A stretch of DNA of 20,000 nt from an uncultured virus (IMG/VR IMGVR_UViG_3300002835_009787) (taxonomy: Duplodnaviria; Heunggongvirae; Uroviricota; Caudoviricetes): IMG/VR virus record IMGVR_UViG_3300002835_009787. The stretch is one strand, 5' to 3'. The translations under genes were made by a program, and so were the position numbers. A model generated the notes under the pieces. The model had not been told where the DNA came from, did not search any database, and saw only the letters and a program-made list of their open reading frames with translations. Within the stretch, counting starts at the first letter, position 1; each line of letters begins with the position of its first letter. Shown here one piece after another: positions 1,982-15,366 of this stretch.

Positions 1982-2054
1982 CGCCTTGGGTAGGAATTGA
2001 ACCTACGACCTGCGGATTAGAAGTCCGTTGCTCTATCCCCTGAGCTACCAAGGC
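1982..2054 (-). tRNA. tRNA-Arg(TCT)
   Basis: Acceptor GCCTTGG/CCAAGGC, D arm GCTC/GAGC, anticodon loop CT-TCT-AA, T arm GTAGG-TTCAATT-CCTAC; discriminator G is followed by CCCA, not an exact CCA. Confidence 0.95.
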
Positions 2055-3773: not shown

Positions 3774-4151
3774 TTATTGGATGATCCATTGTTGGCCATC
3801 TTCTGAAGCTAAATAGTTTATGGCACTGTTGCCTATCCATTCTGCTTTCCATGCATATTGGCAGCATGGTTTTTCATTGGGGCCTGACTGGCTGTGGCAT
3901 CCTTTGCCTACTAGTACACTGAGTAGTGGGAATGTGTCTAGGAACTTTATTACGCAGTCGTGACATAGTCTGACTAGTTGTTCTGGTTCTCCAATTGGAT
4001 CTGTGAAGCCGGCATAGTATCCGAAGTGATTGAGATTAAATGCCCATCCATTATCTGGAAAGTTTTCTTGAGTATGATGCGGAGCCATAGACCCGCACCC
4101 ATGACACATGTGAAAGCCATGACGAGGATAATTTGTTGGGTATTCATTCAC
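3774..4151 (-). CDS. Cys/His-rich putative zinc-binding protein
   Basis: CHGC, CHDC, CH and CC motifs; probable GTG start at 4151 overlapping the end of whiB (ORF track starts at 4181). Confidence 0.7.
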   Translation of the reverse strand: MNEYPTNYPRHGFHMCHGCGSMAPHHTQENFPDNGWAFNLNHFGYYAGFTDPIGEPEQLVRLCHDCVIKFLDTFPLLSVLVGKGCHSQSGPNEKPCCQYAWKAEWIGNSAINYLASEDGQQWIIQ

Positions 4152-4407
4152 TTTTTTTTCCTTCGGCTCGCATTCTGCCACGCTTGCGTGCTGTTACTCC
4201 ACCCCAGATGCCCTGTAGTTCTGGTCGTGACATAGCATAATCTAAACATTCTTGTTTGACTAGACAATCTTTACATATGGCTAATGCTATTTTTACTGTA
4301 GGGTAATTGCCTGGGGCTTCTGGGAACCAGTCACCTTCAGTGTTTCCTTTACATGCGGCGTCTTTCATCCAACGCTGGATATTTAGCATTTCAAGTGGGG
4401 TGCTCAT
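4144..4407 (-). CDS. whiB: WhiB family Fe-S transcriptional regulator, ~87 aa
   Basis: W..AAC...WFP...A..IC..C.V..ECL.YA...GIWGG; ATG at 4407 follows an AAAGGA SD. Confidence 0.95.
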   Translation of the reverse strand: MSTPLEMLNIQRWMKDAACKGNTEGDWFPEAPGNYPTVKIALAICKDCLVKQECLDYAMSRPELQGIWGGVTARKRGRMRAEGKKSE

Positions 4408-4452
4408 GTTAATCCTTTTTGAGTTAATAAAATTTTTTTTATTATACTTAAA

Positions 4453-4515
4453 TAGTGGGTAGCAAATGGTTGGTTCGCAGCATTCATCGGGAATGTGCAC
4501 ACTTACTACCCACTA
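4453..4515 (-). other. Long irregular hairpin upstream of whiB
   Basis: UAGUGGGUAGUAAGUG/CAUUUGCUACCCACUA outer stem plus inner CAUUC/GAAUG stem. Confidence 0.6.
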
Positions 4516-5974: not shown

Positions 5975-5985
5975 CCGACTTATTC
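5975..5985 (-). promoter_or_regulatory. GAATAAGTCGG motif copy (candidate phage-RNAP promoter or operator)
   Basis: Exact 11-mer present four times on the same strand. Confidence 0.6.
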
Positions 5986-6929: not shown

Positions 6930-7152
6930 GGGTTATTCCCTCCCGACTTATTCCTTTAGAATAATATTCAATGTCTATGTCCTTGTGACATACGCCACAA
7001 TATATTCCACGACAATCTATTTCTTCAAAGTAGAACTGGTGGTTCATACAACGATGTAATTTCCATGGGTTGCCGGCAACATATCGCACAATGCCTCGCA
7101 CGAATACAGCCGATATGAGGATTAGAATGACGAGAGGTAAGATGATGTCCAT
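6910..7152 (-). CDS. Membrane-anchored zinc-ribbon protein, 80 aa
   Basis: N-terminal TM helix; C..H and CGVC motifs; GGAG SD. Confidence 0.7.
   Translation of the reverse strand: MDIILPLVILILISAVFVRGIVRYVAGNPWKLHRCMNHQFYFEEIDCRGIYCGVCHKDIDIEYYSKGISREGITHENTND
6943..6953 (-). promoter_or_regulatory. GAATAAGTCGG motif copy
   Basis: Exact 11-mer directly before the SD and ATG of 6753..6929. Confidence 0.6.
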
Positions 7153-7430
7153 TAGTAGTCTCCATGTTTAGCTGCATCGAGTGATTCGAGGCATGGGTTG
7201 CTTCCACAGCATTGGCAAGGCTTGAGATTATCAAGTGCATCCTGTAAAGAAATAACTTTATCGGACAACTGCTCAATAAGTATTTGGTGTGATTCACAGA
7301 TCTCAAGCAATGAGTCTGTACGGCGGTTCATTTCCTTGACCGTTTCTAGCAAAGTCATCTGACTAATCTTTATTAGACCTTCTTTAGTCGCAATAAGATT
7401 AACATCAAATGAGTCGTCTTGAATTCCCAT
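7152..7430 (-). CDS. Coiled-coil protein with Cys-rich C-terminus, ~92 aa
   Basis: Start reassigned to ATG 7430 (GAAAGGA SD); heptad region followed by PCQCCGSNPC. Confidence 0.75.
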   Translation of the reverse strand: MGIQDDSFDVNLIATKEGLIKISQMTLLETVKEMNRRTDSLLEICESHQILIEQLSDKVISLQDALDNLKPCQCCGSNPCLESLDAAKHGDY

Positions 7431-7506
7431 AACAATCCTTTCAATTGAGATGAATAATATAACATATTGATACAACGCTATTCCTGCATATGTCAGACAG
7501 TACAAT

Positions 7507-7676
7507 AATGTCGCCCTTGTACCAGTGGCCTAGGTTACCCTAAATGTTTAAAAGTCGCTGTAACTCGACTGTTCATCATCAACTTTACATCGGTAGAACG
7601 ACCGTATGTATATATAAGTGTTGATTACTCAGCCTGATTCGACATCCATTGGTTTACAGGCTACCAGTACATAGGC
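7507..7676 (-). ncRNA. Candidate five-way-junction RNA with pseudoknot
   Basis: 13/14-bp closing stem, four internal hairpins (one with a GUAA GNRA loop), loop GAUGUCG complementary to 3' CGACAUU. Confidence 0.5.
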
Positions 7677-7695
7677 TTTTATATGTGTCCTATGA

Positions 7696-7854
7696 TTATT
7701 TACACAGATTTCTTGCTTTTTTAGCTGCTTCTTGAGCTGCTGTCCATGTTGGAAACCAAGATAGACATTCTTGACAAGTAGCGTCATGATGTTCTACGCT
7801 TTCAAATTCGCAAGGATCAGGTGCTGCTGTTCCGCAAATGTAAGGTTCACTCAT
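7696..7854 (-). CDS. Small Cys-rich protein, 52 aa
   Basis: Hand translation MSEPYICG...CEF...HHDATCQEC...; AAAAGGAG SD. Confidence 0.7.
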   Translation of the reverse strand: MSEPYICGTAAPDPCEFESVEHHDATCQECLSWFPTWTAAQEAAKKARNLCK

Positions 7855-7870: not shown

Positions 7871-7881
7871 CCGACTTATTC
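7871..7881 (-). promoter_or_regulatory. GAATAAGTCGG motif copy
   Basis: Exact 11-mer lying between a terminator and the next SD. Confidence 0.65.
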
Positions 7882-7930: not shown

Positions 7931-7985
7931 AAAAAAAAATGTCAGTCAAGCCGATATGCGGGGGGGCATACCGACCTGACTGACA
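7931..7985 (-). terminator. Intrinsic terminator
   Basis: 20-bp stem UGUCAGUCAGGUCGGUAUGC/GCAUAUCGGCUUGACUGACA followed by U9. Confidence 0.85.
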
Positions 7986-8534: not shown

Positions 8535-8551
8535 TAGACCCAACCCCTTTC

Positions 8552-8659
8552 TGTGACCGTAGTCACATAAACTACCAGCAACCCGATGTTACCAGTAGGC
8601 GAAGTCCCGAAAGACCCCGACTTATTCAACGGCCAGACCCGTGATGGGGGCCAGACCGC
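8552..8659 (-). other. Structured leader of four tandem hairpins
   Basis: Hairpins at 8629-8659, 8600-8619 (UUCG loop), 8572-8598 and 8552-8567 (cUACGg loop). Confidence 0.6.
8617..8627 (-). promoter_or_regulatory. GAATAAGTCGG motif copy
   Basis: Exact 11-mer in the gap after the polymerase gene. Confidence 0.6.
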
Positions 8660-8763
8660 GGAAAATCTCTTGAACCGTGTTTAGAATCAAAGTGGAACCA
8701 AGTCTTGGGGACTAGGCAGAGCACGGTGCTTGTTTAGAATATAACATTAAGATAATACTTATC

Positions 8764-11439
8764 CTAGAGGCCCAGATCCTTGAGCCCCTGGATAAGCAGA
8801 TCCATCATTGATTTCTGCCCACGCTTGCCGGCTTGGAACATTACACGGTCAACTAGACCATAACGCAGATGAGCATTGGCCTTGATGTATTCGCCACGAC
8901 CTTCGTGATACACCCTCTCGTAGCTCATCTTTGGATCAGTCATCCAGCGATAGATAGCAACAGCCATCTTGGTTGGTGACTTGGACGTTTCAATCTCATC
9001 GACCATCATCTTGACAATGGCTTCCAACTCGGTTGAAGAATACACAGCGTTCCATGCCTTGAAGTAGCGGCTTGACCACTTTGTCTCTTCTGCCTTAGCT
9101 TCTGCCTTACGCTCGTCAAATGCACGCAACATGTGGATATACTTGGTGTTGAATGCTTCACAGACAGCCTGTGTTTGATCTGACAGTGTAGGGATTAACT
9201 GTTGCAGTTGAGGAATTAACTCAGAACGCATGCGGAGATAGATGGTGTTCTTCTTCTCTTCGCGTACATCCTTGAGTACCTTGATGTAGTGCTCACTGAG
9301 CTCTGCCAATGGTCCATCATAGACATTACCTTCCAACTCATGCTTGAACCGATCAGGGATACGACTCATCATGTAGCTGTCAATCTTGATATCTTGTTTG
9401 ACCATATCATCGATCAATGATTGCCACATGGTTGATACGCTGCCACTGATAAAGCGGAATGCCTCAATGTTTGCTGTCTGAGAGCTTGCATCGATAATGT
9501 CATTACCACTAGCTGGCATGTAGGTTGGGTAGCTTGGACCGAACACACTTGCATGCACCATCATGAAGTTTGAGAATGAACCAAACCCAGGGTTGTGCAG
9601 TTGTGCATCAATCATGTCCTTGGCGTTATCCCGTGTGAATCCCCTCTTGGTGTACTGTGTTGAGTTCAGGATTTCATTGAGCTTAGTGTCAACAATAGTG
9701 TCTTTAAGCAGTGTGCTCATCGGCAATGTTGCTTTGCTAAGGTCAATTACCTGTACCATGTCCTCGTTTACACGCATAAATGGCATTGTCTCTGCATCGT
9801 AACGCTCGATTGAATAACCACCAGGTCCGTTTGGTGAACGAATGATGACAACCATGTCGATTGCTTCTTCTGGTGTGGTTGGTACTTCCAGGTCAGCTGG
9901 GATAACAAATCCATCCCTGAATTCCTGGTGTGACAACCCATAGAGAGTTACAACTGGCGAAGAGCTCCACAACTTAATGCGAATGAACCTAGCCATGTCA
10001 CCATCTTGATCCCATGTATCGTGGAGGTCTGCTGTCTCAACAAAGCGATTGCCTGGGATGATTGCACCGAAGCGCTTGTCATACCATACAACATTTGACT
10101 TTGACTCTGGCAGCTCTTGTCCACCCATGATTTGCAATGCCTCATGAGTAATGACAGGAGCCATGAATGCATTAAACATTGGCAACCAGATGTTACCACG
10201 CTTAACTGATGCACTCATGCGATTAGCAAGCTGACCATACGCCATGTGGATGAAGTTTGAGCTGTCATACAATGAGAACCCAGCCTTTTGCCACTTGATG
10301 TAGTTTGCTTGCCACTCTTGGAGTTCATTGTCTTCGTTGACTACTCCATGATCCTCTTGATCATCCATGCTAACAGTCATCCATTCTGGCATATTGCCCA
10401 CTTCGATTTCTTTCTTGAAGTCAGACAAAAGACTGTCACATGTAGCTTTGAGGTGTTCAGTGGTGTACAACCATGGATTGTTGATCATTGATTGATCGTC
10501 AATCGTTACTTCGTACAGAGTTGGCATCGGCCACGCTACAAATGTATAATTACCATCTGTTGTGGACAATTCCTTCTTCTCCATTGATTCGTGGTACACA
10601 ATATCTGCTGGGATTTCATCATCCTCAACAATGTGCAACAAGCCCTTAAGCATGAAGCTTTCCATTTTCATACGGAACAACCAAGTACGATTGTCACCGT
10701 GCACACCACCAATCATCCTGCCTCTTACTTCCGCATCTTTGATAGGGAAACAAGCTTTGATGAATGCTGATTTGCGCATAAAGGCTGGTCCATCAAACAT
10801 CACCTCATCTGCTGGATCATACTTCAATCCATAGCTAGAGTAGTATTGCTCAAGCCATTCGTTCGTATAAGCCTTAGTGGTGACTGACTTCATTGACCTT
10901 GAACGATATACCTGAGTAAACCGTGTGATTTCTTGAAGTCGCTTTGATGTCTTCTTCATGTCGATTACGCTGACACCAAGATCATCCAATGACCAGTTGT
11001 TGTCTTCACGCATCTTCAAGAAGAAAGCATGTGTTGCATTAGCCCAAGCAAAGTTGGATTCTTTGATGAGTGCATCTAAGTCTCCGTTGTCCTTGCTGAT
11101 CCACTGCTTCAGCTCATTGATTGTGATCATCTTAAGCTTGAACTTCTTACCGCGGCTGTTAAGCTTGTGCTCCAAGAGTCCATACTTCCAAGTAGGGTTG
11201 TTGTTGATTGGCATAAGCCAGATATGGTGGTTGTATGCACCATTCTCACCAGTGCGAACTGTTGTCCCCATCTTGAATGGTTTGCCCGTCTTCTTTACGG
11301 TTGAATAGGCCAATGACTCACGCTCTGTTGGGTCGTTGGTGATGGTGTGGAAGAAGTCATGCATGAATGCAATCACTTCTGCTCCTTTCTGTTGAGGCTC
11401 TGTCGTTAAACGATTGAGCTTTTGTTGTGGTGTTTCCAT
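8764..11439 (-). CDS. Single-subunit two-barrel (YonO/QDE-1-like) RNA polymerase, ~891 aa
   Basis: FDG.af, R...LKG, ESMEK (first-barrel motifs), WDQDGD catalytic motif at 9997-10011, IIRSPN at 9829-9846; start reassigned to ATG 11439 (GGAGGT SD); the ORF is open to 11505. Confidence 0.75.
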   Translation of the reverse strand: METPQQKLNRLTTEPQQKGAEVIAFMHDFFHTITNDPTERESLAYSTVKKTGKPFKMGTTVRTGENGAYNHHIWLMPINNNPTWKYGLLEHKLNSRGKKFKLKMITINELKQWISKDNGDLDALIKESNFAWANATHAFFLKMREDNNWSLDDLGVSVIDMKKTSKRLQEITRFTQVYRSRSMKSVTTKAYTNEWLEQYYSSYGLKYDPADEVMFDGPAFMRKSAFIKACFPIKDAEVRGRMIGGVHGDNRTWLFRMKMESFMLKGLLHIVEDDEIPADIVYHESMEKKELSTTDGNYTFVAWPMPTLYEVTIDDQSMINNPWLYTTEHLKATCDSLLSDFKKEIEVGNMPEWMTVSMDDQEDHGVVNEDNELQEWQANYIKWQKAGFSLYDSSNFIHMAYGQLANRMSASVKRGNIWLPMFNAFMAPVITHEALQIMGGQELPESKSNVVWYDKRFGAIIPGNRFVETADLHDTWDQDGDMARFIRIKLWSSSPVVTLYGLSHQEFRDGFVIPADLEVPTTPEEAIDMVVIIRSPNGPGGYSIERYDAETMPFMRVNEDMVQVIDLSKATLPMSTLLKDTIVDTKLNEILNSTQYTKRGFTRDNAKDMIDAQLHNPGFGSFSNFMMVHASVFGPSYPTYMPASGNDIIDASSQTANIEAFRFISGSVSTMWQSLIDDMVKQDIKIDSYMMSRIPDRFKHELEGNVYDGPLAELSEHYIKVLKDVREEKKNTIYLRMRSELIPQLQQLIPTLSDQTQAVCEAFNTKYIHMLRAFDERKAEAKAEETKWSSRYFKAWNAVYSSTELEAIVKMMVDEIETSKSPTKMAVAIYRWMTDPKMSYERVYHEGRGEYIKANAHLRYGLVDRVMFQAGKRGQKSMMDLLIQGLKDLGL

Positions 11440-11972
11440 GGGTTTTACCTCCCCATTTGTTGTTGGTTGATTGTTTGATTGATTTAATACAGACATGCGA
11501 TGCATCCGTTGGTGAATACTTCAGTGCCTGATCCGCCCATTTCTTCTGGCTGGTATTTCGTGCCACATACATGACATTCAACTTTGCCAAATGGCTCATC
11601 CTCTTCCATGACTTGAACAGGCTTAACAGGCTTAGGCTTGTATGCCTTAAGCTTGTCAATAGCTGCTGATGCCCACTTGGTGGTGAGTACATTTGTCCCA
11701 TCGATATGTGCTTTCATCTTTGTTGTCAAAGACTCCTGCTCATCAATTGTCATGTTTGATTTAACTTCCAAGAACAAAGACCGGATAAACTTTATCTGCT
11801 TATCTGTCATTGGTTTGTTCTTTGGTGCAAGTTGAGCCAGTTGCTCTCCACACAGTTCACAATAAACTGCCTTGTAGTCTGTGTTTACTTGTCCTGGAAT
11901 TAATTTCCAATCCCAGACTTGGTGTTTGCACTGCTTCATCGGATTTACCTCCCGAATTGTTGTTGGTTGATT
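11437..11972 (-). repeat. 36-bp direct repeat (11437-11472 and 11937-11972, 32/36 identical) containing an A/C-rich leader, GGAGGT and ATG
   Basis: Aligned by hand; the copies are 500 nt apart. Confidence 0.8.
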
Positions 11973-14330: not shown

Positions 14331-14332
14331 GG

Positions 14333-14482
14333 TTACTTTCCTCCCTTATTGGTGATTGATGTTTCTACTAGGTATGCCCTTACATAGGCACATGTCTTTG
14401 CATTTACTGGTATGTTGTGCTTTACACAATGCAGTAGGTACTTACGGTACGTACGTGCATATGATGTCCTGTTATGGTCCAT
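14333..14482 (-). CDS. Small basic protein, 49 aa
   Basis: Hand translation MDHNRTSYARTYRKYLLHC...; AGGAG SD. Confidence 0.6.
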   Translation of the reverse strand: MDHNRTSYARTYRKYLLHCVKHNIPVNAKTCAYVRAYLVETSITNKGGK

Positions 14483-14590
14483 GACTATCTCCTATGTTTG
14501 AAGTGAATAAAGCCCAATGTTTTACATACCATGGCTATCGTATGGTTCATGTTGTTTAGTGTCCACCAATGGACAGTATTACTGGGGTAC

Positions 14591-14767
14591 TTAGTCCTTA
14601 GTTACCCTGCACTCAGTGCCATCAGCATGCATGTGCCAACATACAGTCTTTCCTTCATCATTTACCTGAAAGAAAGGTGTGTGCTTTACTGACAATTCCT
14701 TACCTGTACCCCATGTGCATACCCTTGGCCCACGGCTAGGTGTGTTGCTGTTATTAACAGTAATCAT
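14591..14767 (-). CDS. Hypothetical protein, 58 aa; first gene of the block
   Basis: Hand translation MITVNNSNTPSRGPRVC...; GAGGAG SD. Confidence 0.6.
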   Translation of the reverse strand: MITVNNSNTPSRGPRVCTWGTGKELSVKHTPFFQVNDEGKTVCWHMHADGTECRVTKD

Positions 14768-14984
14768 ATTACTCTCCTCTTGTTAATTGTTTAACCTTAA
14801 GACCCCATACCCGGGTGGGCACGTTAAAGATCTTAAGGGTGTGTATATACCCACTACTACTGGCCCATATTTTTTCCATATTTTTAGCCTATTAGTTTTT
14901 TTTATATATGTTTTTACACCAAAAATTTTTCCCTTATTTTTATACCTATATAGGAAATCGGCCGGCAAAAAAAAGTTTGGAATA

Positions 14985-14998
14985 TATTGTGATAGAGG
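14985..14998 (+). repeat. Exact 14-mer TATTGTGATAGAGG, copy 2
   Basis: See 3745-3758. Confidence 0.7.
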
Positions 14999-15099
14999 TT
15001 GTCAAAGGTAAACATGCTTTGCTATTATCTTTGTTGTCATATAGATATCATGTACAAGAATCATATAACCATCAATGCCTAGTACAAAAGGATAAGAAA

Positions 15100-15294
15100 A
15101 TGAATAACAACAAGAGTACGTTGACACAAAAATCACAGGATGATATTCAACTGGATATGTTCGAGGATTATGAAGGGTTAGACGTGGAAGATGATGTCTT
15201 CTATCAGTTTAACTCTAAGACATACTATGGAGCTAAGTCAGCTTACGTTGAGGTTGAAGATTATGATTTCGACAACTACGGCTATAATGACTAA
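15100..15294 (+). CDS. Small acidic, aromatic-rich protein, 64 aa
   Basis: ATG 15100 after AAGGA; followed by a terminator; the ORF-track upstream extension looks non-coding. Confidence 0.75.
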   Translation: MNNNKSTLTQKSQDDIQLDMFEDYEGLDVEDDVFYQFNSKTYYGAKSAYVEVEDYDFDNYGYND

Positions 15295-15313
15295 TATTTA
15301 ACGTATATAAAAG

Positions 15314-15346
15314 AAAAACCCCCTGGATATACCGGGGGGTTTTTTT
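15314..15346. terminator. Bidirectional intrinsic terminator
   Basis: A5-CCCCCTGG-atata-CCGGGGGG-T7 between convergent genes. Confidence 0.9.
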
Positions 15347-15366
15347 ATATCCTTATATAAGTATTA

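Follow-up and report, generated by a model that had tools for sequence, protein, structure and literature searches.

The stretch of DNA analysed here (the window) is 20,000 nucleotides (nt) long and is part of a large (~200-kb) freshwater phage. The closest related record, G001, comprises 204,904 bases, is 97% complete and has 94% of sampled words in common with the window. WhiB at 4144-4500 in the window and a proteasome subunit in G001 suggest that the phage probably infects actinobacteria. The window also holds a tRNA-Arg(UCU) gene (1982-2054, minus strand), and ARAGORN called 7 tRNAs in G001, where JAB, ThiF, AAA and proteasome-subunit genes are clustered (L201:17269-19753, L202:10228-10839) in a possible ubiquitin-like module.

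The region of interest is a gap of 265 nt between the stop (7696) of a 52-aa ORF (7696-7854, minus strand) and the RBS-led ATG (7430) of a 92-aa ORF (7152-7430, minus strand). No function was assigned to the 52-aa ORF, which is missing from several relatives; the 92-aa ORF has no family match and is swapped for other genes in relatives. A preliminary description had placed a gene-free gap of about 265 nt inside a packed polymerase operon. Its length and non-coding nature were borne out: stops occur in all six frames of a 264-nt slice of the gap, where the longest open stretch is 42 codons, and the six-frame stops together with 1-2 nt indels among homologues ruled out a coding role. The operon did not stand, as a terminator-like hairpin (7940-7985, minus strand; 20 pairs and a T-run, by consensus match only) and a repeated motif (7871-7881) intervene before the polymerase gene. 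The hairpin divides the array unit described below from an upstream 178-aa gene, and the 52-aa ORF lies between the motif and the array. Elsewhere in the window, 8544-8763 and 14331-15366 are gene-poor too, with conserved hairpins or AT-rich sequence, and an orientation switch at ~14700-15300 contains a bidirectional terminator-like hairpin.

A predicted RNA polymerase and a repeated motif

The neighboring gene (8764-11505, minus strand), which lies outside the array, encodes a single-chain, two-barrel RNA polymerase-like protein of 913 aa. This ORF has 99 relatives and no Pfam or PHROG match, and neither sequence searches of the PDB nor tblastn against isolate phages gave a match. A DxDxD motif is invariant in 60 aligned sequences. 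The structural model of the protein (pLDDT 90.3; 34.7 for a single-sequence prediction) had QDE-1 (E 6e-9), RDR2, phage P74 gp62 and P32 gp64 as its best Foldseek matches. By this structural match the protein is a QDE-1-like RNA polymerase as to fold, as the preliminary description had it, with its activity predicted. Two distant QDE-1-like paralogues are present per genome in G001, G004, G573, G574 and G575 (the second copy, for example, at L201:63-2528). The family was found in 10 of the 12 array-bearing records searched, the two misses being 15-16% complete fragments, and arrays often lie between the two paralogues.

The repeated 11-nt motif, GAAUAAGUCGG (as DNA; 7871-7881, minus strand), occurs four times in the window, always on the minus strand (5975-5985, 6943-6953, 7871-7881, 8617-8627), where 0.01 copies are expected, and it is also present in relatives. 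Among scorable arrays, 12 of 16 start within 30 nt of a copy. We infer that the motif may be a promoter, a candidate start signal of the phage polymerase. The copy at 8617 has a small hairpin before it that is conserved in relatives.

Five RNA modules in the gap

Judged from sequence comparisons, the gap carries five separately folded RNA modules in a row, A to E (7462-7705, minus strand), and not one RNA. The element is also larger than the 7507-7676 originally proposed. Strong covariation supports C, D and E as pseudoknots, whereas the evidence for A and B is weaker. Since related sequences can beat shuffled controls, it is relevant that slid controls scored far lower in every case.

Module A (7668-7705, minus strand) is a putative 38-nt H-type pseudoknot with weak-to-moderate support, the first 10 nt of which overlap the end of the 52-aa ORF. 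Its stem pairs GUGU with ACAC (7705-7702 with 7688-7685), the loop CAUAGG (7694-7689) pairs with CCUAUG (7675-7670), and the connecting loop is A-rich. Among five distinct variants, the L084 class shows the single compensatory change of the pseudoknot stem, while stem 1 is invariant; in the L005 class a hairpin is inserted into the A-rich loop. Module A occurs without E in L005 and L009 and after E in L044.

Module B (7631-7662, minus strand) is the hairpin AGCCUG/CAGGCU, the P2 stem of the preliminary description, for which 13 variants provided one compensatory change. Its 20-nt loop carries a constant CCAAUGGAUGUCG(A/G)A, a constancy that is partly by construction because the loop formed part of the search expression, and one class has a wholly different stem with the same loop. 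Mimicry of rRNA was considered from two matches of module B to 23S rRNA and was rejected. Such matches exist but do not rise above 300 shuffles (p 0.30-0.46), and a single comparison of 12 reached p 0.04 (module C against 16S).

Module C (7571-7631, minus strand) is a 61-nt double pseudoknot in which two hairpins have both loops paired with the 3' tail, through the helices GAGU/ACUU, AUCAAC/GUUGAU, CGGU/ACCG and GUUC/GAAC. In 39 distinct copies 95.2% of cells are paired, a figure lowered by four short-loop rows whose first stem is misaligned, and 10 of 18 pairs show changes on both sides; none of 500 shuffles was as high. The second pseudoknot, missed in the preliminary description, is 100% paired. 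Covariation confirmed the core AUCAAC/GUUGAU (94% paired) and the CGGU/ACCG part of the proposed P3 stem, and its UACAU/AUGUA extension fared less well (78.6% of the helix paired). The first hairpin and the 3' pairing strand of module C recur in conserved structured leaders of unrelated phages (L091, L098 and L103, ~1440-1560; L093, 820-945), directly 5' of NUMOD4-domain ORFs. A NUMOD4 Pfam match was obtained for all three ORFs tested, and the leaders have no Rfam match; their model scores are not independent, since the loci came from a C-derived pattern.

Module D (7527-7570, minus strand) is a 44-nt H-type or kissing-loop pseudoknot in which the stem AGUCG/CGACU is combined with pairing of the loop GUUAC to GUAAC, with AAA in the connecting loop. 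The alignment used 20 of 31 variants, with the short-linker class left out; the 19 distinct copies among these are 100% paired, with changes on both sides in 6 of 10 pairs. These fall on 4 of 5 pairs of the pseudoknot stem and on 2 of 5 pairs of AGUCG/CGACU, which upholds that stem (P4) as first drawn. The sequence of the module otherwise varies almost freely. A short-linker D pattern matched 0 viral contigs. A P5 hairpin with a GNRA loop, also proposed, is at most a short stem: it is 83% paired, the G-C pair closing the loop is broken in 4 of 19, and the loop is mostly not GNRA because it pairs with the P4 loop.

Module E (7462-7523, minus strand) is a 62-nt pseudoknot with a long stem, a large asymmetric internal loop and a short inner stem CUGU/GCAG; the 3'-terminal AUAUGU pairs with the loop ACAUAU. 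The 29 distinct close copies are 100% paired with both-side changes in 3 of 19 pairs, a count reached by 156 of 500 shuffles. A model search located two remote copies, both on one phage-like G015 contig, and an alignment including them (25 matches, drawn from 30 sources and aligned on the nested part of the model) is 99.6% paired with both-side changes in 8 of 19 pairs, which no shuffle reached. A relaxed E pattern gave 51 loci, 10 of them above 60 bits and three of those new; more remote copies lie in L238, L261 and L264, and remote copies keep the core CUG-RYAUAU. In records that were mostly fragments, E model R1 found none in 5 (the complete G002 among them) and model R3 none in G002, G003, G006, G013, G014 and G016. 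By column E is 94% identical, yet the ORFs that follow it belong to 17 different families.

Compact pseudoknots with constant unpaired residues, such as the CUG of the E core, could also be expected of a self-cleaving ribozyme or a selfish RNA element that cuts the array into units. Module D resembles the P1-pseudoknot-AAA half of the pistol ribozyme in its 5-bp stem, loop pseudoknot and AAA connecting loop. The second and third stems and the catalytic junction of pistol were not found in D, the sequence of D varies almost without constraint, and no Rfam ribozyme matched the window, D included, or the 34 homologous loci. Furthermore, no mobility gene was present among the 116 of 134 long G001 ORFs scanned, and we consider that any module acts in this way to be very unlikely.

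Array turnover and RNA-library contigs

Homologues were collected from nine polymerase loci, where pieces of the element occur in differing combinations, and then from pattern scans that yielded 6, 8 and 11 viral loci and 50 metagenome loci. With duplicates removed, 56 distinct arrays fell into 21 layouts when modules were called by regular expressions (D being scored by its 3' linker). The layout A-B-C-D-E is the commonest (19), A-B is replaced by at least seven other module types, and C is duplicated in nine arrays. The near-universal presence of E reflects ascertainment, since most loci were found with E patterns. These comparisons show that modules are gained, lost, duplicated and reordered, and that the array is dispensable in some lineages.

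The same data bear on the original proposal of one 170-nt multibranch RNA, closed by a stem P1 and a long-range pseudoknot GAUGUCG/CGACAUU. Every stem listed for that model was located at its position, and the description of a structured, conserved non-coding element of no recognised family near an RNA polymerase gene was sound. As one molecule the model did not survive, its parts being independent modules that are found apart, duplicated and swapped. It is the minimum-energy fold from a program unable to form pseudoknots, and the fold of 7490-7700 (z = -2.49; 4 of 200 shuffles as good) is modest evidence alone. The 5' strand of P1 accompanies the 3' strand in only 18 of 53 distinct arrays, and the 5' strands of P1 and of the long-range pseudoknot are absent from 31 of 49 complete arrays. 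All 18 keep 12-13 of 14 P1 pairs and 7 of 7 pseudoknot pairs, but P1 has no compensatory and two breaking changes, the long-range pseudoknot is invariant in these arrays, and CGACAUU is partnerless in 21 of the 35 others. Moreover, P1 is made of the 3' strand of the A pseudoknot and the 5' strand of E, both used by covarying helices inside their own modules, and C7513 is claimed by both P1 and the long-range pseudoknot. Even though A-B-C-D-E is the commonest layout, we regard this fold as extremely improbable, including as an alternative, switch-like conformation of A-B-C-D-E arrays.

In L004, the array is deleted beside a polymerase that is 99% identical. A deletion of the missing 247 nt is suggested by a 3-nt microhomology at the joint and by retention of the first 13 nt of A, and one contig of sequencing run X4, with 28 letters on its short side, skips the same 247 nt (7445 to 7693). 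RNA runs holding part of the stretch numbered 23; of 24 runs, eight contained at least 0.2 of its words and 16 less, and four were examined by contigs. RNA-library contigs covered the array in three of these (X1, X2, X3); the runs were chosen for holding the stretch, and the contigs report presence only, without strand, ends or level, and with DNA possibly present. No contig covered 8806-12000 in the four runs, an absence that is not evidence.

Arrays occupy different gene junctions of one region; G015 carries two in a single genome, and lengths of about 650 and 715 nt are attained in G573 and G574. The ~650- and 715-nt arrays at L279:950-1600 and L280:925-1640 follow a homologue of a 347-aa gene and contain structured-looking modules, among them tRNA-like T-loops and several E-like folds, with no Rfam match. 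L238 has three E-like folds. In L044 and L047, 200-450 nt of further modules lie 3' of E, including two similar pseudoknot-like units in L047. tRNA-like units with a T-arm and an acceptor-like stem, without an anticodon arm, precede D in L028, L031, L037, L045, L071 and L204; ARAGORN called no tRNA or tmRNA in 44 loci, and there was a weak tmRNA-end match (E 0.039, below gathering). Phage-like contigs of the clade also appear in bins named Acidibacter and Cyclobacteriaceae (G015:C17, G016:C49), a placement that is probably mis-binning and not host evidence.

The array might act with the neighboring polymerase, a possibility raised in the preliminary description. By analogy with the UG27 reverse transcriptases and their ncRNA arrays, the modules would be templates, primers or regulators of the QDE-1-like enzyme. 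The nearest solved folds, QDE-1 and RDR2, copy RNA templates, the enzyme accompanies the array in 10 of 12 records and its paralogues often flank it, and UG27 arrays gain and lose units in the part of 10.64898/2026.09.22.753630 consulted. UG27 units, however, have one architecture, which array modules do not, and the array is lost in L004 beside a nearly unchanged polymerase. The strand-specific motif suggests ordinary DNA-templated use of the enzyme, and linkage follows from array and polymerase both belonging to the early region of this clade. We therefore find such a partnership quite unlikely.

The position of E would suit a role in cis. In 41 of 53 arrays a start codon is found no more than 70 nt from E (median 32 nt; 31 nt in the window), and 17 unrelated ORF families come first downstream of these 53 arrays, both by our own ORF rule; this diversity leaves the riboswitch reading weak. 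If located at the 5' ends of early transcripts, the modules may instead block exonucleases or set a processing site, and D-E may cap either the downstream mRNA or the array's own 3' end. Compact exonuclease-resistant pseudoknots occur in eukaryotic viruses, and the position of the array would be compatible with an exoribonuclease-resistant RNA. E ends most arrays, a variant of it terminates both arrays of G015:C17, the D-E linker precedes E in every E-bearing array, and array starts near the motif fit an early transcript. Nevertheless a single stabiliser would suffice, whereas relatives pile up a dozen different folds over 650-715 nt, with more modules after E in L044 and L047 and E three times in L238. 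The terminal place of E is also partly ascertainment, because most loci were found by E patterns, and a literature search combining such elements, RNase J and phages found no paper. Overall, a protective or processing role in cis appears unlikely.

Proposed RNA decoys and known phage RNAs

We favor the interpretation, at a probability of roughly 45%, that the array supplies RNA decoys, expressed early as a cassette, which counter defence proteins of the host; it would work like pseudo-ToxI and the Racrs and is a member of neither. The gap holds one example of a mosaic of small RNAs that fold independently, located in the hypervariable early region of ~200-kb freshwater phages that form a clade. 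Transcription would take place early, with the phage's own polymerase probably starting at the repeated motif. Each module would present a fixed three-dimensional surface by which a host defence protein that recognises RNA is bound and kept inactive; candidate targets are nucleases held in check by RNA antitoxins, nucleases that cut tRNA (for the tRNA-like units) and comparable proteins. Module turnover would track the changing defence repertoire of the host, as with the neighboring small ORFs.

This interpretation is the best fit because it accounts for strong conservation of sequence and fold, free context, accessory status, duplication, tRNA-like modules and the small variable ORFs around the array. 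With sizes of 32-62 nt and H-type pseudoknots that have A-rich loops, the units share the format of known RNA antitoxins (ToxI 31-46 nt, CptI 45 nt, in the portions of PMC3401426 and PMC4627078 consulted). The doubling of C and the three E-like folds of L238 recall the expansion of pseudo-ToxI, and E is far more constant than its context. The T-arm/acceptor units, the presence or absence of arrays among near-identical phages (L004; the X4 joint) and the RNA-library contigs in three of four runs likewise argue for decoys.

Several results count against decoys. No host target or cognate RNA was found, with 0 matches of the exact E pattern in GTDB contigs, and the E model matched 0 of 151 genomes of Chloroflexota, which is not the presumed host phylum. 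ToxN-family proteins above cut-off numbered 0 in 401 genomes of Bacteroidota, likewise not the presumed host phylum and thus uninformative on the host. Table 1 of PMC3401426 includes no Actinomycetota among 125 type III loci, nor are they named in the part of PMC12283969 consulted. The modules are dissimilar and abut almost without single-stranded linkers, unlike toxin-processed antitoxin repeats, and Rfam ToxI and abiF gave no match. Finally, D and E stay together with E usually last and close to a start codon, which a cis role fits equally.

A bolder form of the decoy interpretation, which we consider doubtful, is that these phages carry programmable arsenals of unrelated RNA folds, organised like CRISPR arrays and transcribed early by the phages' QDE-1-like polymerase. 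Each fold would disable a different defence protein of the host or sequester an immune signal molecule. If so, the arrays would be the RNA counterpart of anti-defence protein islands, every module would be a bait for some RNA-controlled defence system yet to be discovered in freshwater actinobacteria, and a heterogeneous array would directly supply baits for unknown RNA-binding defence proteins. Independently of function, the array adds at least three covariation-supported pseudoknot families absent from Rfam (C, D and E), all small enough to synthesise, and the clade that carries them has a QDE-1-like polymerase that is itself uncharacterised.

Rfam searches of 7440-7720 and the window gave nothing for the element at E<=10 except two sub-threshold snoRNA/miRNA matches, and tRNAs alone were reported across the window, the 34 homologous loci, G001 and part of G002, with no ribozyme or riboswitch at gathering score. 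Blastn against isolate phages and plasmids returned only 20-31-nt chance matches. A literature search, with subscription journals mostly outside it, gave no description of these modules or of heterogeneous phage RNA arrays, and the part of PMC13728456 consulted names no such system. None of six motifs occurs in the six supplementary files of PMC10690425 searched, and the modules may be among its 10,000 candidates, unnamed.

A close likeness is to pseudo-ToxI of phage PhiTE, a documented case of a pseudoknot that serves a phage as decoy and operates through expansion and recombination (PMC3475682, consulted in part). Like ToxI, CptI and TenpI in the excerpts consulted, the array includes small intergenic H-type pseudoknots, phage-encoded and altered in copy number by expansion and recombination; further antitoxin pseudoknots are described in parts of PMC5086642 and 10.1101/2025.04.15.648962. 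An H-type pseudoknot of ~31-60 nt with an A-rich loop, as in type III antitoxins, is found in D (44 nt, by covariation) and, weakly, in A (38 nt). Type III antitoxins form tandem repeats, although tenpI repeats can be non-identical (PMC12283969, in part); 7460-7705 has five different folds and no repeat family among the 20 largest listed, and duplication in relatives affects only C or E, in some. The array has no terminator-like site after E and no cognate toxin gene downstream; PF13958 was found in 0 of 2 near-complete phage records by a search that matched nowhere, controls included. In contrast to ToxI as described in these excerpts, the array combines several unrelated folds, no Rfam ToxI match, toxin gene or host counterpart was found for it, and nothing in ToxI corresponds to its double and internal-loop pseudoknots (C, E).

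The Racrs, in the part of PMC10651486 consulted, are likewise small phage ncRNAs proposed as mimics that occupy host defence proteins. Racrs, however, are solitary CRISPR repeats, while A to E are pseudoknots without a match to an Rfam CRISPR repeat family, a comparison that covered A-E. The UG27 ncRNA arrays (10.64898/2026.09.22.753630, in part) share structured phage units that are singly gained and lost beside a polymerase gene; their units are ~150 nt with one fold and a reverse transcriptase partner, whereas array units are 30-80 nt, heterogeneous and accompanied by a two-barrel RNA polymerase. Pfam searches of the window ORFs and of 116 of 134 long G001 ORFs found no adjacent reverse transcriptase; the only related family in G001 is the RNase H-like RVT_3, with no catalytic family. 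The AbiF antitoxin RCd22 is also a phage-borne structured RNA and neutralises a nuclease by binding it, with two abiF hairpins 5' of the cognate toxin (10.1101/2025.04.15.648962, in part), whereas the array has neither an RF03085 match nor a toxin gene. Together these comparisons place the array outside the type III antitoxins, the Racrs and the UG27 arrays, and as a set of decoys it would work like a phage RNA mimic. The known phage RNA mimics, pseudo-ToxI and the Racrs, are single species, and a shuffled multi-fold array would be a new organisation of counter-defence.
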